Positions 32,228-47,416 of a stretch of 59,572 bases of DNA are shown piece after piece. Position 1 is the stretch's first letter, and every line of letters starts with the position of its first letter. The position numbers and the translations under genes are program-made. This stretch comes from Candidatus Saccharimonadales bacterium (GTDB lineage: Bacteria; Patescibacteriota; Saccharimonadia; Saccharimonadales; 2-12-FULL-41-12): positions 1-59,572 of the forward strand of contig JBFIJM010000005.1 in NCBI GenBank assembly GCA_041600715.1. Direction: 5' to 3'. A model generated the notes under the pieces. That model was not told where the DNA came from. It saw only the letters and a program-made list of their open reading frames with translations, and searched no databases.

Positions 32228-35200
32228 ATGAAAATCGAAAATTGGTGTGAGCTGAACAAGCTCAATTTCTCTTTTGTAGAGAAAAATTCTTCCCTAATAC
32301 AAGTAGACCAAAGGTCATTTGTTATTATTAAAAGCAAAAACGGGACCCTCTTTGATGAGGACTTCACATTACAACTTGACAAGTATGAAACTGATTTAAT
32401 CAGTCAATACAAAATCGAAAACTACCTTTTTGAATTCGGAGAAAAATGGTATTATAGCCTAATTGATGACGTCGAAGTAACATTAAGGCCTTTCAAGTAC
32501 ATCGGTAAAGCCAAACTATCCGATTATTTTGATTTCCCTTATTTAGGTATTCATGGAAAATATGACCTGTGTAATGGCAGTAGAGACTATGAAGATTGGA
32601 TTAAGAAAGCACAATTCCTAGGTATAGACACAATAGGTTTATGTGAAACTAATACACTAGCTGGGACACTAGCTTTTCAAAGTGCTTGTGAGAAAATGGG
32701 CATGGGTTACATCATCGGAGAAGAGGTTTTGGTCAGAGATACAAAACTAAACGAAGAGTTTTTTGTAAAACTGTACGTGAAAAATGATAAGGGGTGGGAG
32801 AACCTACTTCTGGTTAACTCAGAGGTGAATGTGCATAACGAAGAGAAATTCATCGAGCTAGATAAATTAGTAGAGTTTTCAAAAGACTTAATCTGCACAA
32901 CAGCCCACTTAAACCCAAAGCATATTAAGAAGATGAAATCGGCTTTCCCGGGACAATTGTATTTTCAGTTCGATACCGTAGAGTACCTTTCCGATGAAAA
33001 AGATAAAGAACATCTCCTGAACCTGAAAAATTATCTAGATAATTTCTTCGACGTAATTGAGCCAGTGATAATTTGCGATAGTTATTATTTAGATACAGAA
33101 GACCATCACATCCGCCATACTTTAAATAAGATAGGGAAAACGAATTTCTATAATCAGTCAGCCAATCAATATTTCAAATCAACAGATGATATCTTCTGTC
33201 AAATTATTCCATTATTCAAGGATAGTGACGAGAGGCTAGATACGTTAATAGAAAGAAGTCTAGCTAGTTTACAGGAAATCAAAGAGGCATGCGACTTCTC
33301 TATCGAAACAGGAGTGTTTCATTTACCTCAATATGAAATGACTAAAGAGGAAGAGAACCTCTACAGCGGTAACGAAGACTTGTTCTGGAGCTTAATAGAA
33401 AAAGCTGTAGATGAAAAGCTAGTCGACAAGGTAGATGATTTAGATGTCTACATGAAGCGGATTGAGAAAGAAGTATCCGTACTGCAAAAAGGAGGCTTCC
33501 TAGATTATTTTCTAGTATTATGGGATATAGTAAACTGGTGTAATACTCAAGGTATAATGTCAGGGGTGGGTAGAGGCTCCGCGGCAGGTTCGCTAGTAGC
33601 ATATTTACTAGGTCTAGTAAAAGTAGACCCAATTAAATATGACCTAATCTTCGAGAGATTCCTGAATGAGTCACGTTTAAAGAGCTCAGCACCTGATATT
33701 GATATGGATTTTCCTGGAAATAGGAGAGACGAAATAAAAAGGTATATAGAGCAGAGATATCAGCCTGAGTATGTAACCTCAATTGGGACATTCGGTACCC
33801 TAAAGATGCGAGCAGCCATAAAGGACTTAGGAAGACAAAAAGGGTTACAGCCTCAAATTGTAAATTACTTTACAGCAATGATTAACCCAGAATCCTCTTT
33901 TACAGATATATTTAGACAGGCAATGACAACGCCAAGGCTAAAGCAATTTGTTCAAGAGAACGCAGATTGGATTAACTCGATACCTCTATGCTATGGGCAA
34001 CCCAAGAACCAATCAATACATCCAGCAGGGGTGGTAATCGCTCCGAAAAAAGACCAACATGGAAGAGATAGAAATATGTACACCTGGATGCCTATCAAAA
34101 AAGTAGAAGGGGTGCTGGTTACTGAATGGGAGGGTTACTATATAGATATGGCTGGATTTTTAAAAGCAGACATCCTAGGTATCAGGCAATTGGAAAAATT
34201 CCAAAGCATTATTGACCTAGTGAAAGAAGAGTGTAATAAAGAAATCGTTTTTGAAGACATACCACTAGATGAAGAGCCAGTATATGAATTATTCAGAGCA
34301 GGGCTGAACGAAGATGTGTTTCAATTCGGGGCCGCTGGTCTAAAAGGGTATTGTCAATTACTAAAGCCTGATAATATCGAAGACTTAATTGCAACAGTAG
34401 CATTATATAGACCGGGGCCTATGGAAATCGGAGCCCACAAGAAATATGCTAAGATTAAAAACGGAGAAGCTTTTCCTGAATACCTCTTAGGAACAAAAGA
34501 GATTACTCAGTCAACTTATTCAAATATTGTTTATCAGGAACAAGTAATGAGTATTTGTGTGGCAGTAGGGGGGTTTAGTTTAGCAGAGGCAGATGATGTA
34601 AGGCGAGCGATGGGAAAAAAGAACATTGAATACCTAAAAAATTACCAAGAGCAATTCGTAACTAACGCTATATCGACAGGATATAATAAGATAGATGCCA
34701 TCAAGTTATGGAACAACCTAGAGAGTTTTGCATCTTATGCATTCAACCGTTCACATGCCACGGCTTATGCATTCACAGGATACTACTGCCAATGGTTCAA
34801 AGAAAATTATCCATTACAATTTTGGTTAACTTCGCTAAAATATGCTGATGCAGATAAAGTACCTTCGAGAATTAATGAGATACATAAGACATCTCCTATA
34901 AAAATATTACCTCCAGATGTGAATTATTCTCAGCCCGGGTATGTAAGTGATACAAAAAAGAATCATATTTACTGGTCTCTAACGTCCGTTAAGTTTATTA
35001 GCGAGAAAGCATCTGAGTCCATAATTGCAGAGAGGGAATCAGGGGGAGGGTTTCTTTCGCTAGAAGATTTTTATGCTAGGGTGGAGAAGAAAACTGTAAA
35101 TAAAAGAGTAATTTTAAATCTGATTTTATGCGGAGCCTTCGACCAAATCTATAACATAGATTCAAGTCAACCCGAGAAAAGATTTAGTTTAATTAAAGAA

Positions 35201-35656
35201 TACTGCGACTTGACCAAAAGCGACATACCGGGAGAATTCAACGATGACGTTAATTGGAAAAGTTATTTTTACACTCTAAAGCAAAAGCAGTTATGTGGAT
35301 TAGGTTATCTCAATTATGCAAAGCTATATGAATCTGTGGATATGCAAGGCACTTTAGTTTCAGAAGATATTTTCTTCTCAGAGGAGGCTCGAGGTATCCA
35401 CAAGTGCGTGGGGGGAGTTATATCTGAAGTAATAGAGAGAAAAAGCAAGAAGGGACCCTTTGCGATGATATCTCTGGACTGTAATAATGAAATGGTTACA
35501 TGCATCATGTGGGCCGAGATATGGCCTGAGTACAAAGAACAATTATTAAATAATAAAGAAAGAATTTTATTTATAGCAGGGGAAATAAAACATGACACTT
35601 TCCGTCAATGTAATATTTTACAAACCAACAAGGCTACAAAAATAAAGATTGTATAA
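32228..35656 (+). CDS. dnaE: DNA polymerase III alpha subunit (family C, DnaE-type)
   Basis: PHP domain, GRGSAAGSLVAYLLG, FERFLN, PDIDMDF, HPAGVV, FLKADILG, ALYRPGP, YQEQVM, YAFNRSH and a C-terminal OB fold. Confidence 0.95.
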   Translation: MKIENWCELNKLNFSFVEKNSSLIQVDQRSFVIIKSKNGTLFDEDFTLQLDKYETDLISQYKIENYLFEFGEKWYYSLIDDVEVTLRPFKYIGKAKLSDYFDFPYLGIHGKYDLCNGSRDYEDWIKKAQFLGIDTIGLCETNTLAGTLAFQSACEKMGMGYIIGEEVLVRDTKLNEEFFVKLYVKNDKGWENLLLVNSEVNVHNEEKFIELDKLVEFSKDLICTTAHLNPKHIKKMKSAFPGQLYFQFDTVEYLSDEKDKEHLLNLKNYLDNFFDVIEPVIICDSYYLDTEDHHIRHTLNKIGKTNFYNQSANQYFKSTDDIFCQIIPLFKDSDERLDTLIERSLASLQEIKEACDFSIETGVFHLPQYEMTKEEENLYSGNEDLFWSLIEKAVDEKLVDKVDDLDVYMKRIEKEVSVLQKGGFLDYFLVLWDIVNWCNTQGIMSGVGRGSAAGSLVAYLLGLVKVDPIKYDLIFERFLNESRLKSSAPDIDMDFPGNRRDEIKRYIEQRYQPEYVTSIGTFGTLKMRAAIKDLGRQKGLQPQIVNYFTAMINPESSFTDIFRQAMTTPRLKQFVQENADWINSIPLCYGQPKNQSIHPAGVVIAPKKDQHGRDRNMYTWMPIKKVEGVLVTEWEGYYIDMAGFLKADILGIRQLEKFQSIIDLVKEECNKEIVFEDIPLDEEPVYELFRAGLNEDVFQFGAAGLKGYCQLLKPDNIEDLIATVALYRPGPMEIGAHKKYAKIKNGEAFPEYLLGTKEITQSTYSNIVYQEQVMSICVAVGGFSLAEADDVRRAMGKKNIEYLKNYQEQFVTNAISTGYNKIDAIKLWNNLESFASYAFNRSHATAYAFTGYYCQWFKENYPLQFWLTSLKYADADKVPSRINEIHKTSPIKILPPDVNYSQPGYVSDTKKNHIYWSLTSVKFISEKASESIIAERESGGGFLSLEDFYARVEKKTVNKRVILNLILCGAFDQIYNIDSSQPEKRFSLIKEYCDLTKSDIPGEFNDDVNWKSYFYTLKQKQLCGLGYLNYAKLYESVDMQGTLVSEDIFFSEEARGIHKCVGGVISEVIERKSKKGPFAMISLDCNNEMVTCIMWAEIWPEYKEQLLNNKERILFIAGEIKHDTFRQCNILQTNKATKIKIV

Positions 35657-35674: not shown

Positions 35675-37579
35675 ATGGACATAAAGCAGAAAACACCTTG
35701 GGGTGGAATAGGATACATAACCATGAAGAGAACCTATGCAAGACGTTTAAAAGAAGACGATGCAAGTTCTCCTACAGAAGAATTTTATCAAATAATTCAA
35801 AGGGAGCTCCAAGCCTGCGAAAAACAATTAGGTCTAACATTCACTGAAAAAGAAAAAGAAGAGTACTTCAATTCAAGAATGCAATTGAAGTGGTCAGTAG
35901 CAGGGCGCTTCATGTGGCAGTTGGGGACAAAGACGGTTGATAAATTAGGTCTACCTTCTTTACAGAATTGCGCAGGAGTAGTAGTAGATGAGCCCATAAG
36001 ACCTTTTACCTGGACAATGGAAATGCTGATGCTAGGGTCAGGCGTTGGATATAATATCCAAAGAGAGCATGTATACCAATTACCTAAATTGAAAGGGAAA
36101 ATTAAAATCAAACGACTAGATACAGCAGATGCTGACTATATAGTACCTGACACACGCGAAGGATGGATAAAACTAGTAGGCAAGGTACTGAAGGCTCATT
36201 TTTATAGAGGACAAGGCTTTACTTACTCGACACAACTTGTCCGTTCAAAAGGGGCTCCTATCAAAGGCTTTGGCGGATTAGCATCAGGACCTGAGGATTT
36301 ATGTTGGGGTGTGGAAGAAATTCATAAAATACTAAACATTAGAGCAAGGCAGAAAGTGAGGCCGGTCGATTGTTTAGATATCATGAATATAATTGGTGCA
36401 GTCGTAGTCTCAGGGAATGTAAGGAGGTCAGCTCAATTGGCCATCGGAGATTCTGACGACATAGAGTACTTGAAAGCAAAGAGATGGGATTTAGGTAAAA
36501 TTCCAAATTGGAGAAATATGAGTAACAACTCAGTGGCCTGCGATGATATAGAATCACTACCAAAGGAGTTCTGGGATACTTACGAGCAAGGAGAGCCTTA
36601 TGGATTAATTAATCTACAGTTATCGCGTAAAATAGGCAGAACTAACGAATACAAATATCCTGACCATGATGTAGTGGTTTACAACCCATGCGCAGAGCAA
36701 TCACTCCACAACTTTGAAACCTGCTGCTTAGCAGAGCTTTTTCTTCCAAACATAACATCCTATAAAGAACTAATTAAGGTGATAAGTCTAGCCTATAGAG
36801 TGAACAAACACTCGCTGGCATTAAAATGCGCGTTGGAGGAAACAGAAAAAATTGTTAATGCTAATATGAGAATGGGTATTGGGGTGACAGGTGTACTACA
36901 AGCATCAGAGGAGCAGAGGAGCTGGCTGAAAGAGGCATATGTGTGGCTAAGAGAGTATGATGAGAAATATTCAGCAGCAAATAATTTCCCGGTATCTATC
37001 AAGCTAACAACAGTGAAGCCAAGTGGTACTTTAAGTTTATTAGCAGGGGTAACACCAGGCGTTCACCCAAACCCTGCAGGACCTTATTATATAAGAAGAA
37101 TAAGGATTGCTACAAATAGTAATCTACTATCAGTGTGCAAGTCTCATGGATACCATATAGAACCTCAAAGAAAGTTTGATGGCAATGATGATAAGTCGAC
37201 AATGGTAGTGAGTTTTCCATGTAGCGTGCCAGAGGGCACACCTGTGGCGGGGAATTGTAACTGGAAAGAGCAACTGGAAATGATTAAAAGAATGCAGGCT
37301 GAATGGTCAGATAATTCTGTTAGCTGTACCGTCTATTATAAAAAGTCGGATTTAAAAGATATCAAGGAATATCTTAGAACTCATTACAACGAAAGTTTCA
37401 AAACACTGAGTTTTCTGTTAGAGAGCGACCACGGGTTTGACCAAGCCCCTTATGAAACAATAACTAAAAAAGAATACAAGAAAATGATGAAGGGCGTAAG
37501 ACCTATCATGTCTGTTGAGGTCGAAGAAGAAGATTTTCAAGTAGACGATTGCGATACAGGCGCTTGCCCTATAAAATAA
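35675..37579 (+). CDS. nrdJ: Class II (adenosylcobalamin-dependent) monomeric ribonucleotide reductase
   Basis: LQNC, GNVRRSA, NPCAEQ, ETCCLAE, TTVKPSGT and C-terminal CDTGACPIK. Confidence 0.92.
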   Translation: MDIKQKTPWGGIGYITMKRTYARRLKEDDASSPTEEFYQIIQRELQACEKQLGLTFTEKEKEEYFNSRMQLKWSVAGRFMWQLGTKTVDKLGLPSLQNCAGVVVDEPIRPFTWTMEMLMLGSGVGYNIQREHVYQLPKLKGKIKIKRLDTADADYIVPDTREGWIKLVGKVLKAHFYRGQGFTYSTQLVRSKGAPIKGFGGLASGPEDLCWGVEEIHKILNIRARQKVRPVDCLDIMNIIGAVVVSGNVRRSAQLAIGDSDDIEYLKAKRWDLGKIPNWRNMSNNSVACDDIESLPKEFWDTYEQGEPYGLINLQLSRKIGRTNEYKYPDHDVVVYNPCAEQSLHNFETCCLAELFLPNITSYKELIKVISLAYRVNKHSLALKCALEETEKIVNANMRMGIGVTGVLQASEEQRSWLKEAYVWLREYDEKYSAANNFPVSIKLTTVKPSGTLSLLAGVTPGVHPNPAGPYYIRRIRIATNSNLLSVCKSHGYHIEPQRKFDGNDDKSTMVVSFPCSVPEGTPVAGNCNWKEQLEMIKRMQAEWSDNSVSCTVYYKKSDLKDIKEYLRTHYNESFKTLSFLLESDHGFDQAPYETITKKEYKKMMKGVRPIMSVEVEEEDFQVDDCDTGACPIK

Positions 37580-37595: not shown

Positions 37596-38072
37596 ATGAA
37601 ATACCAATCAACAAAACGCTTCGATAATTTTTCGATTGCACTAAGACAACACAAAGCATCACACAGCCACTGCGAATTACTTCATGGCTACGCATTCGAG
37701 TTTAAGATAACCTTTGAAAGTAATGAGGAGGGTATAGATGAACAGTTAGATGATATGAATTGGATAGTCGACTTCGGCGGCTTTAAAACACAGCCCGTAG
37801 GGAATGGATTAAAAGATTGGATGAACCTAATGTTTGACCACACTACCTTATTAGAAAAAGATGACCCTGTGTTAGATATTTTTCAACAACTAGAGCAGAT
37901 GGGTGTACTAAAGCTCCACGTTCTTGATAAAATGGGCGCCGAGAGCATAGCCAGATTAGTCTTTGATAAAATGAATGATGTATTAAGCAAGACAGATGGG
38001 GCGAGGTGTCGGGTACATAAAGTAGAATGCTTCGAGAACAGCAAAAACAGCGGTATATTCACAAGAAGTTAA
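37596..38072 (+). CDS. queD: 6-carboxy-5,6,7,8-tetrahydropterin synthase QueD (QueD-like)
   Basis: HC.LLHGY, W.VDFG, FDH and GAESIA motifs, next to queE/folE/queC. Confidence 0.85.
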   Translation: MKYQSTKRFDNFSIALRQHKASHSHCELLHGYAFEFKITFESNEEGIDEQLDDMNWIVDFGGFKTQPVGNGLKDWMNLMFDHTTLLEKDDPVLDIFQQLEQMGVLKLHVLDKMGAESIARLVFDKMNDVLSKTDGARCRVHKVECFENSKNSGIFTRS

Positions 38073-38112
38073 AGATAATCTATTGATTTTCAGAGAAATA
38101 TGTGGTTTTCAT

Positions 38113-38152
38113 AAATAAAATTTGTTTATGTGTGTCAATGTACATATCTTTA
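38113..38152 (+). promoter_or_regulatory. Phage promoter AAATAAAA-TTTG-N20-TATCTTTA
   Basis: TTTG at 38121-38124 and TATCTTTA at 38145-38152. The spacing matches Bacteroidota -33/-7 promoters. Confidence 0.8.
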
Positions 38153-38180
38153 TGGCTTATAAACACTTAAACATCGGAAA

Positions 38181-40244
38181 ATGAAAAAATCGGAACCAAT
38201 CAAACTAAGGCCATACCAGACCACTGATATTGAGAATATTGAAAAAGCCTGGGATACACACCGCTCGGTATTATACCAGCTACCTACGGGTGGGGGCAAG
38301 AGTGTAGTGCTTACAAAACTAGTAAGTGATTACCCGGATGAACAAATAATAATCTTTGCACATAAAAGGAGGCTATTAACACAACTCCATGAAAGGTTAA
38401 ATGGAATGGGGATTAAAACAGGAATACTGTTTGGTCAAAGGTCTGAGGATTTAGACTCGCCTGTGGTTGTAGTATCTATTCGTACCGCAGTAAATGATAA
38501 GCGCCTTGAAAAGTTAATGCTTAGGGAGTGGAATAGAGTGATTATAGATGAGGCACGTCATTCCCGTACTAGTAGCTATGATAAGGTGCTCACAGCATTA
38601 GTGAAAAAATATCCGATGCATAAACTCTTGGGTGTGGATGCAACACCTCATCGTAAGGATGGTAAAAGGTTAGATAAGCACTTCCAAGTTCTGGTAAATT
38701 CAGGAGAAACAACAGCCTCACTGATTGATAAAGGCTTTCTATCTAAATACAAAACCTTTCAGTCACCCATTGACAAAGAATCGCTGAAGGAGCAGGTAAA
38801 GGAAAACAGCAATGATTATCAATCTACTGAACTGAGCGGATATATGCGTCAACCAAAATACCTGGAATATATAGTCGATACTTACAAGAAGTTCGGTGAA
38901 GAAAAACAGGCTATTGCTTTCGCCGTAGACTTAGCTCACGCAAAAGACTTGAGAAACTGTTTTATAAATCATGGAGGCTATAAGCCAAGCGAGATAGTCC
39001 AAATTGATTCGAGGAAGAAGCCGAAAGAAATCGATGCAGCCTTTGCAGGATATGAAAAGAAAGAGATTCAGATACTAATCAATGTAGAAATGATTACTGA
39101 AGGAGTAGACCTTCCTGACACGGGATGTATAATAGGAGCCAGACCTACAAAGTCATTAACACTTTACTTACAGATTGTCGGCAGAGGAACTCGTATCAAA
39201 AATGACGGGAGTGACCTAATAGTACTCGACTGCTGTGGTTGGACCGAAGAATACGGAACATTAAGTTCTCCAAAAACCTGGTCGCTGAATCCTGACATAG
39301 ACCCAAATAACCCGAGGAAAGGAAATAAGATAGTGGGGAGGAATGCAGCAGGTGAGTACACTGAGGATTTAACTGAGTTCGTAGGAGAAATAGTTGAGAT
39401 GACTGCTGAGGAATATATCAGGAACTTATCCAAGGGTTTAGAGTATGCCGAGGAAGAAAATAAAAGTATTGATGACAAGATTCAAGATTTACTCACTGCA
39501 CTAGCAGAGCTTATTGTTAAGTTAATGAAGGATGGTCATGCTAATTTACAATACAAAGTGAGTATCAATTACCGTAGAGTTAAAATCGAATACTTTCACA
39601 AATCAATAAAGAAGGATGAGTATAACTACAGACATCATTCAATCGATTTAGAATTTGAAAAAGATGGCGATACATCAGAATTCTTTCCTCAAATGAATTA
39701 CGGGTATGATAAGAGTGAGACCAAAAACCAAATCATCGACTTACAAATAGCTCTAGGTAAAATGTCCGAGGTATTTAATAACAAGAAAAAGCTAGATGGG
39801 TTAGAAGATGACGCTAAGGGATTTATATCACAAATCACTGACTTAGAAGAATCTAAAATTAATCTGGATGAATTCAAGGAGCAGGCTAGAAGGTTTAAAA
39901 GAGAGCAGTGGGAGAAGAAAATAGATGACCACTTTATAGAAAGCAGCAAGTTTATGTTTGAAAAGACTTTGCGTTATAACGCTTTCTTCAGAGATTACAG
40001 TAGAGGTTTCAACATAGAAGGGGTTGAATTTCCGAAAGGAAAAATTAACAAGACCAATAATATAATGATTCTCCATAAGGTAAGAATGGATAGGAATTGG
40101 CGTTATAAGGAAGAAAACAAGCCCGAGTATACTGAATCAAGAGTAACGGAGACAAGGGAGTATATTAAAATAGATAAAATCCATGAATTACTTAAGGCCG
40201 GAAAGTGGGGTGAGGTAAAAAAAGAAGAATTAGAAACAGTTTAA
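38181..40244 (+). CDS. Superfamily 2 (DExH, RadD/UvsW-like) helicase with a long C-terminal extension
   Basis: LRPYQ, LPTGGGKS, IIDEARH, ATP.R.DG, ITEGVDLP and QIVGRGTR. Confidence 0.9.
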   Translation: MKKSEPIKLRPYQTTDIENIEKAWDTHRSVLYQLPTGGGKSVVLTKLVSDYPDEQIIIFAHKRRLLTQLHERLNGMGIKTGILFGQRSEDLDSPVVVVSIRTAVNDKRLEKLMLREWNRVIIDEARHSRTSSYDKVLTALVKKYPMHKLLGVDATPHRKDGKRLDKHFQVLVNSGETTASLIDKGFLSKYKTFQSPIDKESLKEQVKENSNDYQSTELSGYMRQPKYLEYIVDTYKKFGEEKQAIAFAVDLAHAKDLRNCFINHGGYKPSEIVQIDSRKKPKEIDAAFAGYEKKEIQILINVEMITEGVDLPDTGCIIGARPTKSLTLYLQIVGRGTRIKNDGSDLIVLDCCGWTEEYGTLSSPKTWSLNPDIDPNNPRKGNKIVGRNAAGEYTEDLTEFVGEIVEMTAEEYIRNLSKGLEYAEEENKSIDDKIQDLLTALAELIVKLMKDGHANLQYKVSINYRRVKIEYFHKSIKKDEYNYRHHSIDLEFEKDGDTSEFFPQMNYGYDKSETKNQIIDLQIALGKMSEVFNNKKKLDGLEDDAKGFISQITDLEESKINLDEFKEQARRFKREQWEKKIDDHFIESSKFMFEKTLRYNAFFRDYSRGFNIEGVEFPKGKINKTNNIMILHKVRMDRNWRYKEENKPEYTESRVTETREYIKIDKIHELLKAGKWGEVKKEELETV

Positions 40245-40255
40245 AAATAAAGTAT

Positions 40256-41020
40256 ATGGGAAAAACACAATTAGCAGTATCAGAGGCATTTTACTCTCTA
40301 CAAGGAGAAGGCAAGACAGTAGGTATTCCCTCTGTCTTCCTAAGATTAAAATCCTGCAACCTAACCTGCGGGTTCACACAGAAGCAGGCAAATAGTTATG
40401 TTAAGGGCGAAATTGATATAATGAAGAAAGACCTGCCTGATTCAACATGGTTCTGTGATACAGTAAATGTATTTCTAACCGGGCACAAGAAAGATTTCGA
40501 AGACGTCCTGCCAATTGACTTCGTACATAGGCTACGCCAAGGTGCCCACTTAATAGTTACAGGGGGAGAGCCTTTACTACAAAGAGAGGGGATTGTAAAT
40601 TATTTAACTTGGTTTATCAATAAGTATCAATTCACGCCTTTCGTAGAACTAGAGACAAATGGAACTATACCTCTGGAGAATTTAGGTGAATATATAGACC
40701 AAGTAAACTGTTCGCCTAAATTATCTAACTCTGGTGTTAAACTCGAGGCTAGATACTGCCCGAATGTTATAGAAAAACTGAATGAGAGGAGAGATACTAT
40801 CTTTAAATTCGTAATTTCATCCTCTCAAGATTGGCAGGAGGTTGTAGAGGATTATCTACCCTATATAGACAAAAAGAAAATCTGGCTCATGCCAGCAGCT
40901 TCAACGCTAAAAGAATTATTAATTAACAATAAAGTAACCGCTCAAATGGCTATCGACAATTGTGTGAATTTCACATCACGTATTCAGGTAGAGGTTTGGG
41001 ATAAAACAACAGGAGTATGA
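40256..41020 (+). CDS. queE: 7-carboxy-7-deazaguanine synthase QueE (radical SAM)
   Basis: FYSLQGEG...G.PSVFLRL..CNL.C...CDT, TGGEPLLQ, ETNGT, SPKL and KFV. Confidence 0.92.
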   Translation: MGKTQLAVSEAFYSLQGEGKTVGIPSVFLRLKSCNLTCGFTQKQANSYVKGEIDIMKKDLPDSTWFCDTVNVFLTGHKKDFEDVLPIDFVHRLRQGAHLIVTGGEPLLQREGIVNYLTWFINKYQFTPFVELETNGTIPLENLGEYIDQVNCSPKLSNSGVKLEARYCPNVIEKLNERRDTIFKFVISSSQDWQEVVEDYLPYIDKKKIWLMPAASTLKELLINNKVTAQMAIDNCVNFTSRIQVEVWDKTTGV

Positions 41021-41646
41021 TGGAAAAGAAACATGCACACCACAACAAACCTCTATCTAAAGAGGAGAAAGAGAAAATGATAGCGGAAGCATCTAAACAC
41101 TATGCTGGGTTTATGACAGCTCTAGGGATAGACCATGAAAATGACCCTAATAGCAAAGACACTCCGATGAGAGTAGCCAAGTCATTTGTTAATGACCTTA
41201 TAAAAGGGCGCTATCAAGAAGAGCTGAAAATAACCTCATTTGACAATATCGAGAAATATGATGGTTTAGTGTTCCAAGGGAATATTGATATGAAGTCAAT
41301 GTGCTCACATCATCACCTAGCTTTTGCAGGTGTTGTTCATGTAGCATACATTCCAGCACCTGATGGAAAAATCATCGGCCTATCTAAGCTGAATAGAATA
41401 GTAGAATATTACAGCAGGAGACCTCAAGTCCAGGAGAACCTCACTCAACAGATTTCTAAGCATATAGATAAGGTGTGTGAAAAGAACCTGGGTGTAGCAG
41501 TGTTAGTGGAAGCACAACATACTTGCTGCTCACACAGAGGTATTAAGCATGAGTCAACTATGAAAACATCTAAGCTGACAGGAGTGTTCTTAGATAATGA
41601 AAATCTTGCTAGACAAGAATTTTATGATTTTGTAAATAATTTATAA
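41017..41646 (+). CDS. folE: GTP cyclohydrolase I
   Basis: DTP.RVAK, SMCSHH, IGLSKLNR, RRPQVQE and H.CC..RG. Confidence 0.95.
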   Translation: MMEKKHAHHNKPLSKEEKEKMIAEASKHYAGFMTALGIDHENDPNSKDTPMRVAKSFVNDLIKGRYQEELKITSFDNIEKYDGLVFQGNIDMKSMCSHHHLAFAGVVHVAYIPAPDGKIIGLSKLNRIVEYYSRRPQVQENLTQQISKHIDKVCEKNLGVAVLVEAQHTCCSHRGIKHESTMKTSKLTGVFLDNENLARQEFYDFVNNL

Positions 41647-41658
41647 ATAAATAGAGAT

Positions 41659-42171
41659 ATGAAAACAGGAAAACAATTACTCGATGCGGGCATCATTACC
41701 GGAGAAATCAATGAAAAGAATGTCGCACAGCACGGCATCGACCTGAATGTAAAAAGAATTCAGAGAATGCTGGACGTAGGTTTTATACCAAAGGATGGTA
41801 AAACTAGGCTAGTTAGATATAGCGATGTAGAGATACACAAAGACAGCGAATCTAATATTGAGAAGTGGCACTTAGAGCCCGGAGCCTACAACGTAGACTT
41901 TGTTCAGGGATGTGATATCCCTAATGACAAAATGCTATTGCTAAGACAAAGAAGCAGTCTATTGAGAAATGGAACAATACTTCATTCATCAGTATTCGAC
42001 GCCGGCTTTAAAACTGAACACATGGGCTCTGTAATCATCGTAGCACATCCTATTGAAATAGAAGTAGGGGCTAGAATTTGCCAGGTATATGCGCATGATT
42101 CAAATCCTGTAGAAAATCTATATGAAGGTCAATTTCAGGGGGATAAGCAAAGAGAGGGGGAAGAGTCATGA
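41659..42171 (+). CDS. Trimeric dUTPase/dCTP deaminase superfamily protein
   Basis: GIDL, RSSL.RNG, VFDAGF, G.RICQ and C-terminal Y.GQFQ. Confidence 0.85.
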   Translation: MKTGKQLLDAGIITGEINEKNVAQHGIDLNVKRIQRMLDVGFIPKDGKTRLVRYSDVEIHKDSESNIEKWHLEPGAYNVDFVQGCDIPNDKMLLLRQRSSLLRNGTILHSSVFDAGFKTEHMGSVIIVAHPIEIEVGARICQVYAHDSNPVENLYEGQFQGDKQREGEES

Positions 42172-42941
42172 TTAAAGTATCACATGAAATACCGATAAGG
42201 TTGTTCCCTCAGCATGATTTTATTAATGACTACCCTTATGCATTAGCACATTTGTTAATGAAAGGAACAGAGCATTATGAATCGACATACGCGAAATTCT
42301 ATAAAGCTAAGCTTCAAACTGCAGAGTTTTCAATACTAGACAACAGCTGCTATGAGCTCGGAGAACCAATTGATAGTCACATCTTGTATGTGTTAGGTGA
42401 GGAATATAAGCCGACTCACCTAGTAGTACCTGATATGTATCAAAACATGGCTGGTACAGTAGGCTCAGTATTCAGATATATTGAGGAATATGGGCAAGAT
42501 TCTACGCCAAAATTCTTCGCTGTAGTACAAGGAACCACTTTAGAGGAGTACATCGAGTGCTTTGACGTCTTTGCAAAAGAACCCACTATTGATATAGTAG
42601 GCGTTAATTTTAAAACATTGTCTGATGGGAAGGGTAGACAGGATTTTTTACAGCACCTTATCGAGACAGGGAAAGATAAGATGAAAAAAATTCATCTATT
42701 AGGCTGCGAGAACGCCTCTGAATTTCTAGAGTATAGCAATGAGGTGATGAGGATAGTTCATTCTGTGGATACAAGCGCCCCGATAGTGCATGGGTGGAAT
42801 CTGAATAAGTTTACCAATGAGCCATTCAATTATGAAAAGCCTGATGAGAAGATTGCAGAGCATTTGTTTAAAACGCTAAATAGACAGCAGCGCGATATGA
42901 TTAGTCATAATGTGAGGATGTTCAGAAGCTTTATACATTAA
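42168..42941 (+). CDS. TGT-fold (DpdA-like) deazaguanine transglycosylase
   Basis: ILDNS.YE.G, VVPD, FAVVQG, HLLG and SVDTS align in order with tRNA-guanine transglycosylase motifs. No C-terminal Zn site. Embedded in the preQ0 cluster. Confidence 0.75.
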   Translation: MIKVSHEIPIRLFPQHDFINDYPYALAHLLMKGTEHYESTYAKFYKAKLQTAEFSILDNSCYELGEPIDSHILYVLGEEYKPTHLVVPDMYQNMAGTVGSVFRYIEEYGQDSTPKFFAVVQGTTLEEYIECFDVFAKEPTIDIVGVNFKTLSDGKGRQDFLQHLIETGKDKMKKIHLLGCENASEFLEYSNEVMRIVHSVDTSAPIVHGWNLNKFTNEPFNYEKPDEKIAEHLFKTLNRQQRDMISHNVRMFRSFIH

Positions 42942-42943
42942 TT

Positions 42944-43486
42944 ATGAGTAGAATAATATTGTCAGGTGTTCAGTCAAGTGGTAAATCAACCCTGCTGAAG
43001 GATATAAGATTAGATGTACCGGAATTAACCATCTATGACGAGATAGTGAGAACTCTAATTAAGAAGGGTGTCAAGATAAACAGAGAGGCTGACCATGAAT
43101 CTCAATGTGCGATATTAAAAGCGCATTACGAGAACTCTCTTGCGAATGATGAGTTTATCTCCGATAGAGGGGCAATAGATGCCTTTGTTTATGGCACATG
43201 GAGTTATCTGAATGGGGATTTTACGTACGAGGAGCATAAAATTCAGGAGCAGATTTTCTTAGGGTGTCTACCAAGATACACACACAACTTTTATTTACCA
43301 ATAGAATTCAAGGCTATTGAGGATGAAGTAAGAGATACAAATGAAGAGTATCGAGAAGAACTGGAGAGAATCTACTACATGACTTATGACAAGTATGACA
43401 TACCCTTTGTAGAGCTAAGGGGCTCTGTGGATGAGAGGCTCGGTATTTTCTGGAGCAATGTGATTTATAAAACAAAGCAGAAATAA
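42944..43486 (+). CDS. P-loop nucleotide kinase-like protein (AAA_28/NadR/TMK-like)
   Basis: SGVQSSGKST Walker A, ISDRGAID, and a D.VR lid. Confidence 0.8.
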   Translation: MSRIILSGVQSSGKSTLLKDIRLDVPELTIYDEIVRTLIKKGVKINREADHESQCAILKAHYENSLANDEFISDRGAIDAFVYGTWSYLNGDFTYEEHKIQEQIFLGCLPRYTHNFYLPIEFKAIEDEVRDTNEEYREELERIYYMTYDKYDIPFVELRGSVDERLGIFWSNVIYKTKQK

Positions 43487-43520
43487 ACTTTGTTTATGTA
43501 AAATAAACAAAGTAAATTTA
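43481..43520 (+). promoter_or_regulatory. Promoter AAATAAAC-TTTG-N20-TAAATTTA with an overlapping 11-bp inverted repeat
   Basis: TTTG at 43489-43492 and TAAATTTA at 43513-43520. ACTTTGTTTAT (43487-43497) and ATAAACAAAGT (43503-43513) are inverted repeats. Confidence 0.75.
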
Positions 43521-43523
43521 GGT

Positions 43524-44063
43524 ATGAGAAAATCGGAGAATATTTCAAAGTACAATTTGGCGTGGCAGCTATGTCGTATTTCTATCAAAGGGAGTGGGTT
43601 TAACTGCGAAGAGAAGATATTAAAAGTCTTTTCATATTTCGAGGAAAAACCATCTCTTCAAAGGTGGGAGCGTGTCTATAACTTCTTGGAGGGACTTCAA
43701 AGAGGGTATAAGGCTGCAAGGATGGATAATGAGATAATGCTAATCCAAACACATCTCGACTGCTTTAAAATAAGTGAAGGTCTAGAATTAGAGGAAGAAG
43801 AAACTGACGACTGGGATTCTATTGAATGGAATGCTATGAATTTAGGAATCAAGCTCTACAAAGACCTTTTCAAGAGAAGTGAGAAGTGGCTCAAAGGTGG
43901 ATATTTTCATAAAGAGCAAGAGGCTTTTGTTGATAAATTACATGAGGTGCTAATAAAAGGAGGCTGGGTGTACTCGGCTCACGACAGACATAATATAAAG
44001 AGATTAAGAGAACTAAGGGCTAATTCATTAACTATGAAGAATAAGCATAATTTCTTTTTTTAA
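43524..44063 (+). CDS. Hypothetical helical protein inside the que cluster
   Basis: 179 aa ORF filling the gap between the kinase and queC. No recognised motif. Confidence 0.6.
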   Translation: MRKSENISKYNLAWQLCRISIKGSGFNCEEKILKVFSYFEEKPSLQRWERVYNFLEGLQRGYKAARMDNEIMLIQTHLDCFKISEGLELEEEETDDWDSIEWNAMNLGIKLYKDLFKRSEKWLKGGYFHKEQEAFVDKLHEVLIKGGWVYSAHDRHNIKRLRELRANSLTMKNKHNFFF

Positions 44064-44080
44064 CATTTAAAACAATAACA

Positions 44081-44749
44081 ATGAAAAAAGCAGTAGTAAT
44101 ATTTTCAGGTGGACAAGACTCCACAACATGCCTAGGATGGGCATTGAATAGATATGATGTAGTAGAGGCTATAACATTCAACTATGGACAGAAACACTCT
44201 GTCGAATTAAAATGTGCCGAGATAATCTGTGAAAAAGCAGGGGTAAAACAAACAGTAGTTGACATCTCTTTCCTGGGTACAATTGTGGAAAGCGCATTAA
44301 CGTCCAATGGAGATGTAAATAAGATAAACGATAAAGGGCTCCCGGCATCATTTGTGCCAAACAGAAATCAACTCTTCATCACACTTGCACACGCCTATGC
44401 TCAGAAAATAGGTGCAGAGACATTAATCACAGGAACTTGCGAAACTGATTTCAGCGGATACCCTGATTGCCGACAAGTATTCATCGATTCGATTGCATTG
44501 TCTTCTAATCTAGGTTCAGATTCTAAAATCAAAATCGAAACTCCACTAATGTACCTAAACAAAGCGGAGACCTTTAAAATGGCTCAAGAAGAGGGTTGCC
44601 TAGAAGAAGTAATTGAATTAAGTCACACTTGTTATAACGGAGTGAGGGATATATTGTATGACTGGGGTTATGGATGCAATGATTGCCCTGCCTGTGAATT
44701 GAGAAGAAAAGGTTGGGAAGAGGCGTCTAATCAATCAATTAATGATTAA
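44081..44749 (+). CDS. queC: 7-cyano-7-deazaguanine synthase QueC
   Basis: FSGGQDS, FNYGQKH..EL, FVPNRN, GYPDCR and TCYNG...GC..CPAC..R. Confidence 0.96.
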   Translation: MKKAVVIFSGGQDSTTCLGWALNRYDVVEAITFNYGQKHSVELKCAEIICEKAGVKQTVVDISFLGTIVESALTSNGDVNKINDKGLPASFVPNRNQLFITLAHAYAQKIGAETLITGTCETDFSGYPDCRQVFIDSIALSSNLGSDSKIKIETPLMYLNKAETFKMAQEEGCLEEVIELSHTCYNGVRDILYDWGYGCNDCPACELRRKGWEEASNQSIND

Positions 44750-44820: not shown

Positions 44821-45453
44821 ATGTCAAAAAAAACAGCAGAAGTAATTAGAAAAGAGACTAAGACTAAGCTATCTAAATATGGTAGCCCCCAGCTCTTAGC
44901 AAAATTAGAAAAAGGCGGGTTTATCGGAGTGTCTGAGGAAGTAGCCTTGGAAATCCTAGAAGAGAGAGAGAAGAAAAAAGAGACTGCAGATAACAAAGGT
45001 TCTAGCTGGGCCAAGAACGGCTCTCATAAAAAAGTAACCAAGTCGGAGCCGGAGGAAGAAGAGCAGATTGGTGAAGAAGAGGAAGAGTCTATAGAAAAAG
45101 AAGAAGGCGAAGAGAAGATTGAAAAAATAGAGGAGACTAAGCCTTTAGGTGAGAGTGTGGCTGCGAAAGCAGTTAGGCTGTCAGCTGAAAAGAAAGCTGC
45201 TGGAGAAAAGGTGGTAGCCAAAGAAGAACCAGCACCCAAAGCTGCTGTTAAAAAGCCTACTGTAAAGAAAACATCTTTCACAGGAGAGGAGTTAGACCAA
45301 CAGGCTGCAATTGTAGCAGAGAAAATTTCAAAGTCTGACAAAATTCGAAAGCTACACGCATTAGGATTATCTGTTTCGCAGATAAGTAAAGTAGAAGGGT
45401 TAGATGCTATCTACCAACAAGTCAGAGGCGTTGTTAAAAAGATGGAGTCGTAA
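44821..45453 (+). CDS. Charged low-complexity protein with a C-terminal HTH
   Basis: SKSDKIRKLHALGLSVSQISK....IYQQVRGVV helix-turn-helix pattern. Confidence 0.6.
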   Translation: MSKKTAEVIRKETKTKLSKYGSPQLLAKLEKGGFIGVSEEVALEILEEREKKKETADNKGSSWAKNGSHKKVTKSEPEEEEQIGEEEEESIEKEEGEEKIEKIEETKPLGESVAAKAVRLSAEKKAAGEKVVAKEEPAPKAAVKKPTVKKTSFTGEELDQQAAIVAEKISKSDKIRKLHALGLSVSQISKVEGLDAIYQQVRGVVKKMES

Positions 45454-46001
45454 TGATGGAGGAGGCAGAAGTAATTTCGTTCCCTTTGGGAGATAAAGTG
45501 GTGTTGCTAAAGCTCACATCCTTTGACGAAATAGATACGGACGAAATTACTAAAATACAGTATCATAACATCATAGGCGAGCTACTTACCTGCTCAACTG
45601 TTCTAAACAGGTTTGGGAATATGGTGGCAGAGGCAGATGAGCTTCTAGCAAAAGCTAAACTAGGATACGATATCTTTTACGCCCAAGAGTATGCCAAGGC
45701 CGCTAAAGAAGGGACTATTAAATACACTAATACTAGGCAAAGAGAAGTAGTGGAGATTCCGTCCTCGAATAAAATTGAGCAAGTAATAAAGGCCAAGCCT
45801 GAGTATGCATCAAAAATAAGAGAAGTCATTAGATTACAGAAACAGCGAGATATAATCAATTCCTTGTATTGGGCTGTTAAATCGAAAGATGATAAATTAA
45901 ATAAATTAACAGACAAAATCAGACCCGAGGACTTTAGTAAAGAACTAGTGGAAGAGGAAATCAACGGAATATTAATCAGAGTTAAACAGAAAGCAATATA
46001 A
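45453..46001 (+). CDS. UvsY-like recombination mediator (putative)
   Basis: Helical 182 aa protein directly upstream of the SSB in a T4-like recombination module. Confidence 0.45.
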   Translation: MMEEAEVISFPLGDKVVLLKLTSFDEIDTDEITKIQYHNIIGELLTCSTVLNRFGNMVAEADELLAKAKLGYDIFYAQEYAKAAKEGTIKYTNTRQREVVEIPSSNKIEQVIKAKPEYASKIREVIRLQKQRDIINSLYWAVKSKDDKLNKLTDKIRPEDFSKELVEEEINGILIRVKQKAI

Positions 46002-46024
46002 ATTTAATTTTAAAAAGTAAAAAC

Positions 46025-47416
46025 ATGGCAGAAGCTAAAAAATTTGACAGGTCTAAATTCAAAGACACTGTAACAGCAGAGCAGCTACAAGCTCAAGACC
46101 AAGCGGTTGAAAAGGCTGCGGGTAAAGATTATGACAATAACTATGCCTCATGGCATAAAATTGAAGAGGGTGTAAACAAGTTCCGGTTATACCCAGCGCA
46201 TCCAAATGAAGAAGGTCACTCATTCGTAGTACCTGTTCAAAGATGGTGGCTGACAGTGGAGGTAGAAGAGAAGGATGACAAAGGGAATGTAGTGATGAAT
46301 GGAAGTAGTCCTAAAATGAAAAAAGTGCGAAAAAGAGTGTTCGACGGGCGTGTTCACAGTAAAGTGGGAAAAGATGTAGTCAACGAATACATTGAGTTTT
46401 TAACAAGAACTCTCAGGGGAGAGGGATTGAGTGAAGCCGAGATTACAGAAAAACTTCTCCCTATTTATGGTAGATTCTCTCCAGTGCCAGCTCAAAGAGT
46501 AAATGGTATCACGGGGAAACCTGAATGGGTGATGTTTGCAGAGAAAGTTCAAGGAGAGCAGAGAATATTTGGTAAACTCCCAATTGGGAAGGCTGTTAAA
46601 ATAAGACTGAACGACCTCATTGCGAGAGAGTCTGCTGACGAGCCTATAGGTAGTGAGGCGACTAATCCATTCACTGACCCAGATGATGGTAGACTATTGG
46701 AGATTACCTATAATGGGAAAGCAACAAAAGCAGCCGATTATTATAAAACCGAAATAGATTCCTCTTTTGACAAAGACACTAAGATGATTAAATTAATGCC
46801 TTTGTCTGATGATGACCTAGGTAAGTTCATGGAATTCGATTCATTGCATGACCAATACGTTGATTGCTATACAACAAGAGATTTCGAGGTGGCAATGGAA
46901 GGATTGAAGAATCTAGATGAAGAGAATGACTTTGGAGTATTTCAATATGACGTATTCCTAGACACTTGTGAGGAATTGTCAAAAGCTTATCCTGAGCCGA
47001 AAGCAAAAAGCGAAACAGAAGATGCTTCAAAAGAAGAATCTAAAGAAGTAGGTGAATTCGATTTCGACAATATGGATAGAAATGCCCTGAAAATCTTTAA
47101 CAGAGATAATAACTGCGGCCTCGTGGTGACCAAGAACATGGATGATGACGCAATCAGGGAGGAATTGTACGCATGGCTAGATGCACAGCAACAGGCATTA
47201 GCAACAGCAGATAATGAGCCAGAAGAAGAAGAAGTAGAAGTAGAAGAGATGGAGGAAGAAGTAGAAGAGGTAGAAGAGGAAGTGGAAGAAGAAGAGGACT
47301 CTGCTATAGATGACTTACCTTTCGATGCTAAAGAAAGAGGTGCTCCAGTAAAGCCTGAAAAGGAATTATCAACAGCTGAGAGAATCAAAGCTTTGAGAGA
47401 GAAGCAGAAATCATAA
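46025..47416 (+). CDS. Single-stranded DNA-binding protein, gp32-like
   Basis: G.N.FRL.P, FTDPDDGR.L.I motif, and an acidic tail ending in DDLPF. Confidence 0.7.
   Translation: MAEAKKFDRSKFKDTVTAEQLQAQDQAVEKAAGKDYDNNYASWHKIEEGVNKFRLYPAHPNEEGHSFVVPVQRWWLTVEVEEKDDKGNVVMNGSSPKMKKVRKRVFDGRVHSKVGKDVVNEYIEFLTRTLRGEGLSEAEITEKLLPIYGRFSPVPAQRVNGITGKPEWVMFAEKVQGEQRIFGKLPIGKAVKIRLNDLIARESADEPIGSEATNPFTDPDDGRLLEITYNGKATKAADYYKTEIDSSFDKDTKMIKLMPLSDDDLGKFMEFDSLHDQYVDCYTTRDFEVAMEGLKNLDEENDFGVFQYDVFLDTCEELSKAYPEPKAKSETEDASKEESKEVGEFDFDNMDRNALKIFNRDNNCGLVVTKNMDDDAIREELYAWLDAQQQALATADNEPEEEEVEVEEMEEEVEEVEEEVEEEEDSAIDDLPFDAKERGAPVKPEKELSTAERIKALREKQKS

Follow-up and report, generated by a model that had tools for sequence, protein, structure and literature searches.

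Is a 7-deazaguanine placed into the DNA of a phage after replication, or is it exchanged onto a free nucleotide that the polymerase then incorporates? The question is raised by a gene cluster at positions 37596-44749 of a 59,572-base stretch of DNA from a Candidatus Saccharimonadales assembly (hereafter the window), in which a compact 257-aa protein with the barrel fold of tRNA-guanine transglycosylases (TGTs) is directly followed by a P-loop kinase. By homology, this protein belongs to DpdA3, a subfamily already described in print, and has its base-exchange site intact, and its linkage to the kinase is specific, reciprocal and conserved across very different phages. Comparative genomics suggests that bases are exchanged on free nucleotides and that phosphorylation follows, and we consider the chances about even that DpdA3 and the kinase have a free deoxynucleoside or deoxynucleotide as their substrate. 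An initial annotation, made from the DNA letters alone, had read the locus as a 7-deazaguanine DNA-modification module, and the homology of the cluster genes supports it.

The DpdA3 barrel and the neighbouring kinase

The two central genes are the following.

42168..42941, plus strand: predicted DpdA3-family minimal TGT-fold 7-deazaguanine transglycosylase, 257 aa (tblastn; phrog_19058, 8.1e-24; AlphaFold2 model)
42944..43486, plus strand: AAA_28 (NadR-RNK/deoxynucleoside-kinase-like) P-loop kinase, 180 aa (PF13521, 1.4e-17)

The start of the barrel gene overlaps the stop of a preceding dCTP-deaminase/dUTPase-fold gene (ATGA at 42168-42171), and 2 nt (42942-42943) separate its own stop from the start of the kinase; both junctions had been described before and were confirmed by direct reading. 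In Pfam, the 257-aa protein has no match to PF01702 (TGT) at E≤0.01 and only one to DUF6610 (E 0.0049), below the cut-off. A tblastn search gave matches in 26 of 50,697 phage records, among them the 'DNA guanine transglycosylase' (annotated DpdA) of Flavobacterium phage immuto (31.6% identity, 6e-24, 99% of the query) and a hypothetical protein of the CP220 group of Campylobacter phages (36.6-37.9% identity, 2e-22 to 2e-21); phiST gave no match at E≤1e-3. The initial annotation had treated the barrel as a novelty without a subfamily, a view that gives way to a place in DpdA3, assigned by homology to the CP220 and immuto proteins. Since the barrel is a DpdA3, the kind of system is already known and published; what is new here is the census of its pairing with the kinase.

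An AlphaFold2 model of the barrel, built from an alignment of 57 sequences, has a pLDDT of 96.3. Foldseek relates it to TGTs and to the bacterial DpdA 7ui4 with probability 1.00 (2pot, E 2.8e-6; 7ui4, E 1.7e-5), the top matches listed being all tRNA-guanine transglycosylases or bacterial DpdA, and in VIA-align the model aligns to TGT with Z 16.3 (228 residues) and to 7ui4 with Z 16.2 (235 of its 413 residues). The residues invariant in the 57 sequences include D58, D89, Q121, G122, H176, L178, G179, D201, T202 and S203. In the PDB profile search, the best outcome for DpdA3 was a weak HMM (hidden Markov model) alignment to 7ui4 (E 0.15) that places L178 on Leu236, which stacks on the base in bacterial DpdA, and D201 on Asp256, the nucleophile of that enzyme (PMC10164549). 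The HLLG and (I/V)D(S/T) motifs are common to DpdA3 and 7ui4, and D58 and D89 would correspond to the catalytic Asp pattern of TGT and DpdA. The TGT fold seen in the initial annotation thus stands, and sequence and model together support that the barrel keeps the Asp pattern of covalent base exchange and performs this reaction.

The C-terminal zinc subdomain of tRNA-guanine transglycosylases is marked by the motif CxCxxC...H. None of the 57 DpdA3 sequences carries CxCxxC, and the barrel model ends 56 residues past the putative nucleophile. The absence of the zinc site had thus been noted correctly, and its value as a distinguishing feature was lost: we rejected it as a mark of a non-DNA substrate because DpdA1 of phage 9g also lacks CxCxxC. 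The whole-protein isoelectric point (pI) or net charge was likewise rejected as a proxy for DNA binding, as the median pI of DpdA3 (5.44, n=84) and of 9g-type DpdA1 (5.77, n=11) shows no separation. Three DpdA3 homologues of 616-652 aa (P0121, P0122 and P0123) contain Intein_splicing and LAGLIDADG_2 domains and are intein-interrupted DpdA3 genes.

The kinase has AAA_28 as its sole Pfam match, spanning all 164 of the 164 profile positions, and no match in NCBIfam; its invariant residues are G13, K14, T16, R36, R75, D79, D127 and R130. Compared to the PDB, its profile finds NadR (6gye, 1.5e-8), a deoxynucleoside kinase (8puu, 5.1e-8) and a thymidylate kinase (TMPK; 2pbr, 3.7e-4), and guanylate kinase (1ex6) at E 0.037 through the P-loop only. 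With the AlphaFold2 model (pLDDT 91.9), Foldseek returns NadR (6gyf) and the Mycoplasma deoxynucleoside kinase 2jat first (TMq 0.71-0.74), then TMPKs. An assignment as thymidylate kinase was rejected: the family model (PF02223) is unmatched, and the 'thymidylate kinase' of phrog_2107 (3.6e-14) is an annotation label only. Judged by sequence and model, the protein is a nucleoside or nucleoside-monophosphate kinase, closest to nucleoside kinases and then to TMPKs, and not the plain dTMP kinase that the initial annotation had allowed for.

Linkage of DpdA3 to the AAA_28 kinase

When IMG/VR was scanned for the DpdA3 alignment, 561 stretches were confirmed; the best 80 of them, joined by the window, Bacillus phage BSP7, CP220 and immuto, form a set of 84 loci, in which all open reading frames (ORFs) were searched for the kinase with iterated profiles. 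An AAA_28 kinase homologue lies near DpdA3 in 63 of the 84 loci. All 63 are encoded on the DpdA3 strand, 62 of them downstream, 10 within 50 nt, with a median gap of 804 nt. Among the loci with at least 2.5 kb of downstream flank, 57 of 64 have the kinase, and so do 30 of 35 DpdA3 clusters at 70% identity and eight of nine at 50% identity. The ninth of these clusters is that of Bacillus phage BSP7, where a different P-loop kinase (phrog_761, 9.5e-16) overlaps DpdA3. The recurrent gene order is DpdA3-(formyltransferase)-kinase-QueF, and in two loci (L051, L082) the DpdA3-kinase pair stands alone on the plus strand between minus-strand genes. Like BSP7, L039 is one of the seven loci with adequate flank but no AAA_28 kinase nearby; it has a kinase homologue ∼40 kb from DpdA3 on the same contig (G005:C1:50410-50922, minus strand, 3.5e-45) with one internal TAA stop, so that the gene may be broken or the match may reflect a boundary effect.

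The pairing also holds from the side of the kinase. A scan with a 9-sequence sub-alignment, representing one kinase sub-clade (at least 57% identity to the seed), gave 247 confirmed stretches; for this sub-clade, DpdA3 was found in 76 of the 79 best new loci, among them every one of the 62 that have 2.6 kb or more of upstream sequence. Among the 50,697 phage records, tblastn with the kinase found 18 matches, 16 of them in the 26 DpdA3 records and the remaining two corresponding to a weak match in Streptomyces phage LukeCage. A query with DpdA1 of phage 9g found 233 DpdA1/2-type records, mostly from Mycobacterium, Escherichia, Pseudomonas and Vibrio phages, and none of these genera occurs in the list of kinase matches. 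In the DpdA1 cluster of phage 9g itself no kinase is annotated, and Pfam assigns no family to the three unknown genes there. A fusion of DpdA3 with the kinase was not encountered; at ∼437 aa it would fall in the 'near' length range, for which the best 120 of 199 matches were considered. The only longer DpdA3 relatives were the three intein-bearing forms, and those of the kinase were two giant, unrelated proteins of helicase-like type. The trio of dUTPase-fold protein, barrel and kinase proposed in the initial annotation is thereby reduced: the barrel-kinase pair is conserved and reciprocal (63/84; 76/79), and the dUTPase-fold gene adjoins DpdA3 directly only in the window and in its closest relative, L004.

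Exchange on free nucleotides or on DNA

The pre-replicative route that we propose would begin with FolE, QueD, QueE and QueC, which by homology make the free base preQ0 (7-cyano-7-deazaguanine) from GTP. DpdA3 would then exchange guanine for preQ0 on free 2'-deoxyguanosine or dGMP, and not on DNA, and the translationally coupled AAA_28 kinase would phosphorylate the exchange product. Host kinases would finish the triphosphate and the phage DnaE polymerase would incorporate the modified dNTP, while the dG or dGMP may come from a nucleoside triphosphate (NTP) hydrolase that would also lower dGTP (a dUTPase-fold protein here, a MazG-like one in some relatives and an HD protein in CP220). The outcome would be a pre-replicative, genome-wide replacement. 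DpdA3 and the kinase would then constitute a cassette of two genes through which a free 7-deazaguanine base becomes a substrate of the polymerase, and DpdA3 would be the first TGT-fold enzyme of free deoxynucleosides or deoxynucleotides, a proposal for which we see equal chances of being right and wrong.

Several observations count for this route. The barrel is minimal, 228-235 of its residues being aligned to TGT (∼360 aa) and bacterial DpdA (413 aa), and in bacterial DpdA the 128-residue insertion Ins8, which follows strand 8, provides the DNA-binding surface (PMC10164549). The kinase linkage supports it as well, being specific, reciprocal, often translationally coupled, and involving an enzyme of nucleoside-kinase character. 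Replacement of guanine is complete in CP220, phiST and immuto as measured by liquid chromatography-mass spectrometry (LC-MS), versus at most 30% for other DpdA subfamilies (Hutinet 2023, NAR), and a pre-replicative route would explain this completeness in the three DpdA3 phages analysed. Free ADG nucleoside was found in CP220-infected cells (cited literature), and DpdA3 alone produced no DNA modification in E. coli (Hutinet 2023). A modified-dGTP route had earlier been proposed for Campylobacter phages, and undetected deoxyribosyltransferases in phages were considered possible (Hutinet 2019, PMC6884629).

The same genes could also serve ordinary post-replicative insertion, in which DpdA3 swaps guanine for preQ0 in the phage DNA and the kinase and the other nucleotide enzymes belong to supply. 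As a complete exchange would free one guanine and use one GTP per G, a phosphoribosyltransferase (PRTase) and a GMP-type kinase would recycle guanine to GTP for FolE, and the dUTPase-fold protein would be the ordinary dUTPase of the phage. We regard this account as quite possible, if short of probable. A post-replicative role has been proposed for all DpdA subfamilies, and phage DpdA1, stated to insert preQ0 in DNA, is also compact and without CxCxxC (Hutinet 2023). The barrel fold and the catalytic residues match DNA/RNA transglycosylases, the dUTPase-fold gene is not specific to DpdA3, and in immuto and L059 a PRTase gene separates QueE from FolE. Moreover, 100% replacement demands a high flux, and this would account for a kinase beside DpdA3 that is missing beside the low-level DpdA1/2. 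Yet hosts already own a guanylate kinase, PRTase genes occur near DpdA3 in just 6 of the 84 loci, and the kinase is nearer to nucleoside kinases than to guanylate kinase. It is also tied far more tightly to DpdA3 than to FolE, as seen in the 10 loci with gaps of at most 50 nt and the two-gene cassettes of L051 and L082. Finally, the negative result with DpdA3 alone in E. coli speaks against direct insertion, and so does the absence from DpdA3 of most of the insertion that forms the DNA-binding surface of bacterial DpdA.

Other points weigh against exchange on free nucleotides. To our knowledge, all characterised TGT-fold transglycosylases act on polynucleotides. In Hutinet 2023, DpdA3 was read as a post-replicative DNA enzyme, without an activity assay. 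The missing zinc motif and the acidic pI are common to DpdA3 and the DNA-acting DpdA1, and salvage of the guanine set free is another possible reason for the linkage with the kinase. Two DpdA3 clades (45 and 29 loci at 50% identity) make up 74 of the 84 loci, so that independent events are fewer than the locus counts suggest. No AAA_28 kinase is seen in five loci despite adequate flank (L043-L046 and L069), and no homologue was found when the contigs of L043, L044, L046 and L069 (6-49% complete) were searched whole. In L044, L045, L046 and L069 the kinase slot holds only a small ORF with a DUF3310 domain. The window's sole detected NTP hydrolase looks like an archaeal-type dUTPase, and its phage homologues occur in Bacteroides and Chryseobacterium phages without a DpdA3 match; no dGTP-specific hydrolase was identified, and an NTP hydrolase of some fold is present in just 34 of the 84 neighbourhoods.

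The DUF3310 ORFs measure 84-115 aa (L044:7309-7563; L045:2451-2708 and 3632-3979; further ones in L046 and L069). The 'nucleotide kinase' gp1.7 of T7 carries DUF3310 at residues 122-184. This gives a weak hint that the ORFs are stand-in kinases, and only a weak one because they are about the size of the domain alone. A predicted complex of DpdA3 and the AAA_28 kinase scored 0.00, which gives no verdict and counts for neither side.

A variable NTP hydrolase and other nucleotide enzymes

The gene preceding DpdA3 in the window is the following.

41659..42171, plus strand: predicted dCTP-deaminase/dUTPase-fold NTP pyrophosphatase, 170 aa (PF22769, 2.1e-12)

Its PF22769 score (47.9 bits versus a cut-off of 27) places it in the dCTP-deaminase/dUTPase fold. 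The archaeal-type dUTPase model NF002598 matches it at 4.1e-28 (98 bits, below the cut-off of 130), and the best PDB match of its profile is the 'probable dUTPase' 9w59 (1.2e-23), with the family motifs kept. Pfam scans of the window ORFs found no other dUTPase, MazG or HD gene. Across the census the gene is present in 27 of the 84 loci, mostly 2.5-4.3 kb from DpdA3. Other neighbouring hydrolases are MazG-like (immuto and five loci), canonical dUTPases (three loci) or, in CP220, an HD domain fused to an AAA_33 kinase. As the dUTPase-fold gene is not specific to DpdA3, the trio is better described as a conserved pair with a variable NTP hydrolase.

PRTases apart, an IMP dehydrogenase/GMP-reductase-like gene (PF00478, 3.9e-36) is found near DpdA3 in three loci (L041:7522-8589, L064:7378-8349, L082:1712-2671), and an NT5C-like 5'-deoxynucleotidase just 5' of DpdA3 in one (L039). 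Judged by gene content, such neighbourhoods rich in nucleotide enzymes support the free-nucleotide route.

In CP220, gp055 (L001:6862-7893), directly 5' of DpdA3, joins an HD phosphohydrolase to an AAA_33 kinase in one protein, so that DpdA3 of this phage is surrounded by two kinases and a phosphohydrolase. This arrangement could be taken to mean that the AAA_28 kinase works on DNA ends, as a polynucleotide-kinase-like enzyme that would repair, in CP220 together with the HD-AAA_33 protein, abasic sites and nicks left by massive exchange. The AAA_33 family in Pfam presumably includes polynucleotide kinase, and in one Bacillus phage record the feature (a gene region) on which the DpdA3 match falls bears the label 'polynucleotide kinase'. 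Repair of this sort is nevertheless very improbable: the conserved partner is AAA_28 and not AAA_33, the HD-AAA_33 protein occurs in CP220 alone among the 84 loci, and the 50 Foldseek matches listed as well as the profile matches are nucleoside or nucleotide kinases, with no polynucleotide kinase among them.

PreQ0 synthesis and the predicted base

The remaining genes of the cluster are listed below.

37596..38072, plus strand: QueD-like 6-carboxytetrahydropterin synthase, 158 aa (PF01242, 4.6e-13; phrog_2389, 8.4e-35; TIGR03367, 3e-07, below cut-off)
38181..40244, plus strand: superfamily 2 (SF2) DNA helicase, 687 aa (ResIII, 3.3e-17; Helicase_C, 2.4e-12; phrog_16, 1.3e-71)
40256..41020, plus strand: QueE-like radical-SAM 7-carboxy-7-deazaguanine synthase, 254 aa (phrog_2076, 3.5e-47)
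41017..41646, plus strand: GTP cyclohydrolase I FolE, 209 aa (PF01227, 8.7e-49; NF006824, 2.7e-49)
43524..44063, plus strand: ORFan, 179 aa, pI 8.3 (no family in Pfam, PHROGs or NCBIfam)
44081..44749, plus strand: QueC 7-cyano-7-deazaguanine (preQ0) synthase, 222 aa (PF06508, 8.7e-74; TIGR00364, 2.5e-74)

The gene order is thus QueD, SF2 helicase, QueE, FolE, dCTP-deaminase/dUTPase-fold gene, DpdA3, P-loop kinase, ORFan and QueC, with a 4-nt overlap of the QueE and FolE reading frames. QueC is well above the cut-off of TIGR00364 (249 versus 150 bits). For QueE, five TIGR QueE models match at 1e-20 to 2e-11 (TIGR04349, 1e-20), all under their curated cut-offs, and Pfam Radical_SAM at 0.0075. 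FolE, QueD, QueE and QueC are co-encoded with DpdA3 in the window, within 4.6 kb, and based on these gene assignments the synthesis of preQ0 free base from GTP by the four enzymes is supported in the window. The coordinates of the cluster and its four preQ0 genes were confirmed, and the lack of queF reported for the window extends to the whole 1.59-Mb assembly (0 PF14489 matches).

With profiles built from the phage genes, no second copy of FolE, QueD, QueE or QueC was found elsewhere in the assembly, and the single QueD-profile match leaves no second QueD-like gene there (no DpdL model was run). Of the 62 ORFs of the window scanned with Pfam, none had an ArcS-, QueF- or formyltransferase-like match (no ArcS-specific model was run). 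Because QueC is present and QueF, a formyltransferase and a decarboxylase are absent, the predicted base is dPreQ0, and we predict the region to be a phage module that replaces guanine in virion DNA with this 7-deazaguanine. In the rest of the assembly, contig C1 has weak matches to the profiles of DpdA3 (E 1.4e-4), the dCTP-deaminase-fold protein (E 2.7e-5) and the kinase (E 5e-4).

A cluster of preQ0 genes might also leave DNA untouched and raise preQ0 or queuosine for host tRNA, with the barrel as a tRNA enzyme. This has been brought up for phages that have preQ0 genes and no DpdA (Hutinet 2019, PMC6884629), and it would fit the lack of any match to FolE, QueD, QueE, QueC or QueF in the rest of the assembly. 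We give it next to no credence, the least of all the explanations, as the three DpdA3 phages analysed by LC-MS all have fully modified DNA (Hutinet 2023), the barrel is devoid of the TGT insertions that hold tRNA, and the cluster sits in a replication module.

Two further genes of the cluster are probably not pathway components. The SF2 helicase, whose BLAST cluster is present in 7 of the 84 loci (including the window, L004 and L081), is probably a replication or recombination gene. The 179-aa gene, which the initial annotation had noted as an unknown gene before queC, is an ORFan by all searches made: it has no usable Atlas match, its profile finds no homologue in the 83 other loci (L001-L083), tblastn at E≤1 over all loci collected finds no relative, and in L004 the kinase directly abuts QueC with the ORFan absent. 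It is thus no conserved component. The QueC ORF of L004 (L004:7319-8371, 350 aa) is itself split by an insert of ∼130 aa with a LAGLIDADG-like motif.

Comparison with known systems

With the DpdA3 phages CP220, immuto and phiST (Hutinet 2023), the window shares a homologous minimal TGT-fold protein (257-264 aa, 31.6-37.9% identity) and co-encoded FolE, QueD and QueE; with CP220 and immuto it also shares the AAA_28 kinase next to or near DpdA3 and an NTP hydrolase close by. The differences lie in the base and in the hydrolase. The window has QueC without QueF or formyltransferase, both of which are found in immuto, and no second QueD-like gene was found, whereas phiST has DpdL. The hydrolase is of the dCTP-deaminase/dUTPase fold, in contrast to MazG-like proteins in immuto and phiST and the HD protein in CP220. 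We take the QueC-like enzyme of CP220 to make ADG. The predicted dPreQ0 is not listed for any DpdA3 phage in Table 1 of Hutinet 2023.

The DpdA1/DpdA2 phages, such as Enterobacteria phage 9g (dG+) and Pseudomonas phage iggy (dPreQ0), likewise have a preQ0 pathway and a TGT-fold transglycosylase beside replication genes. DpdA1 of 9g resembles DpdA3 in lacking the CxCxxC zinc motif, but the two have no detectable sequence similarity, a profile comparison giving no significant alignment (hhalign probability 0.2). Their replacement of guanine is partial, up to 27% in 9g (Hutinet 2019, PMC6884629) and ∼16.5% in iggy. The 9g cluster has no kinase, and the AAA_28 kinase is unmatched in the genera that dominate the 233 DpdA1/2-type records.

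The bacterial DpdA/DpdB preQ0 insertase (7ui4) shares with DpdA3 the TIM-barrel core, the HLLG and (I/V)D(S/T) motifs and the nucleophilic Asp. It is much larger, with 413 aa of which Ins1 and Ins8 form a DNA-binding crescent, and requires the DpdB ATPase (PMC10164549), whereas DpdA3 has just 56 residues past the nucleophile and Pfam scans of the window revealed no DpdB-like gene.

Among pathways that act before replication, the closest in logic could be those of two other modified genomes. In the window, a putative nucleotide hydrolase of the dUTPase fold, a putative mononucleotide-remaking enzyme and a kinase lie clustered among replication genes. Hydroxymethyl-C of T4 is made with a dCTPase, a dCMP hydroxymethylase and a dNMP kinase, and the Z-genome with DatZ, MazZ and PurZ. 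By analogy, the same three functions, the clustering and complete replacement would be shared. Both known pathways build the new base on the nucleotide, whereas in the window a transglycosylase fold would exchange in a base that is already complete. In chemistry, the proposed exchange would be like that of nucleoside 2'-deoxyribosyltransferases, which exchange the base of a free deoxynucleoside via a covalent glycosyl-enzyme intermediate; these have an unrelated fold, and no such family was detected in Pfam scans of the window.

The phage contig and its replication block

The window is the whole of contig C5 (37.7% GC), one of 30 contigs of an assembly with a completeness rating of 98.65%, the largest contig of which has 42% GC. 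Based on its gene content, the contig reads as a phage: 67 of its 69 called ORFs are on the plus strand, and Pfam scans identify baseplate and tail genes. No exact terminal repeat was found on the contig, and a megablast of the cluster region against phage records gave no match. A replication block encodes a DnaB-like ATPase, a primase, a DnaE polymerase III alpha, a class II ribonucleotide reductase (RNR), SbcCD-like genes and UvrD, and the 7-deazaguanine cluster is placed inside it, among the RNR, polymerase and recombination genes. The two genes upstream of the cluster are as follows.

32228..35656, plus strand: DnaE-type DNA polymerase III alpha, 1142 aa (PF07733, 7.5e-66; PF17657, 2.9e-44)
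35675..37579, plus strand: class II (B12-type) RNR, immediately 5' of the cluster (PF02867, 1.6e-13; PF21995, 1.6e-10)

The RNR provides a context of deoxynucleotide supply, and its cluster is found near DpdA3 in 15 of the 84 loci. Between 35000 and 47000, promoter-like sites (36 versus 33.7 in shuffles) and terminator-like sites (8 versus 7.4) are at chance level and thus uninformative on operon structure. Downstream of QueC (44821-47416) follow three ORFs without a firm family match, among them a Lys/Glu-rich one of 210 aa with a weak HC2 match and one of 463 aa with a long acidic C-terminal tail. The second and third have homologues after QueC in L004 and L005, the first in L004 only (clusters c69, c50 and c51).

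Implications for guanine replacement in phages

The route to 100% guanine replacement in phages has been open since 2019, and the idea of a modified dGTP was dropped in 2023 on the discovery of DpdA3. Neither a DpdA3-kinase cassette nor a nucleotide-level route for DpdA3 was found in the literature searched, outside of which lay subscription journals and the supplements of Hutinet 2023. The specific and reciprocal pairing of DpdA3 with the kinase gives a concrete, testable basis for such a route. If the route is false, what remains is a DpdA3 system of the ordinary sort, with a kinase that probably supports flux. If it is true, it would bring new chemistry to the TGT superfamily and enzymatic access to 7-deaza-dGTP analogues, and would represent a second natural pathway of whole-genome purine substitution beside the Z-genome.

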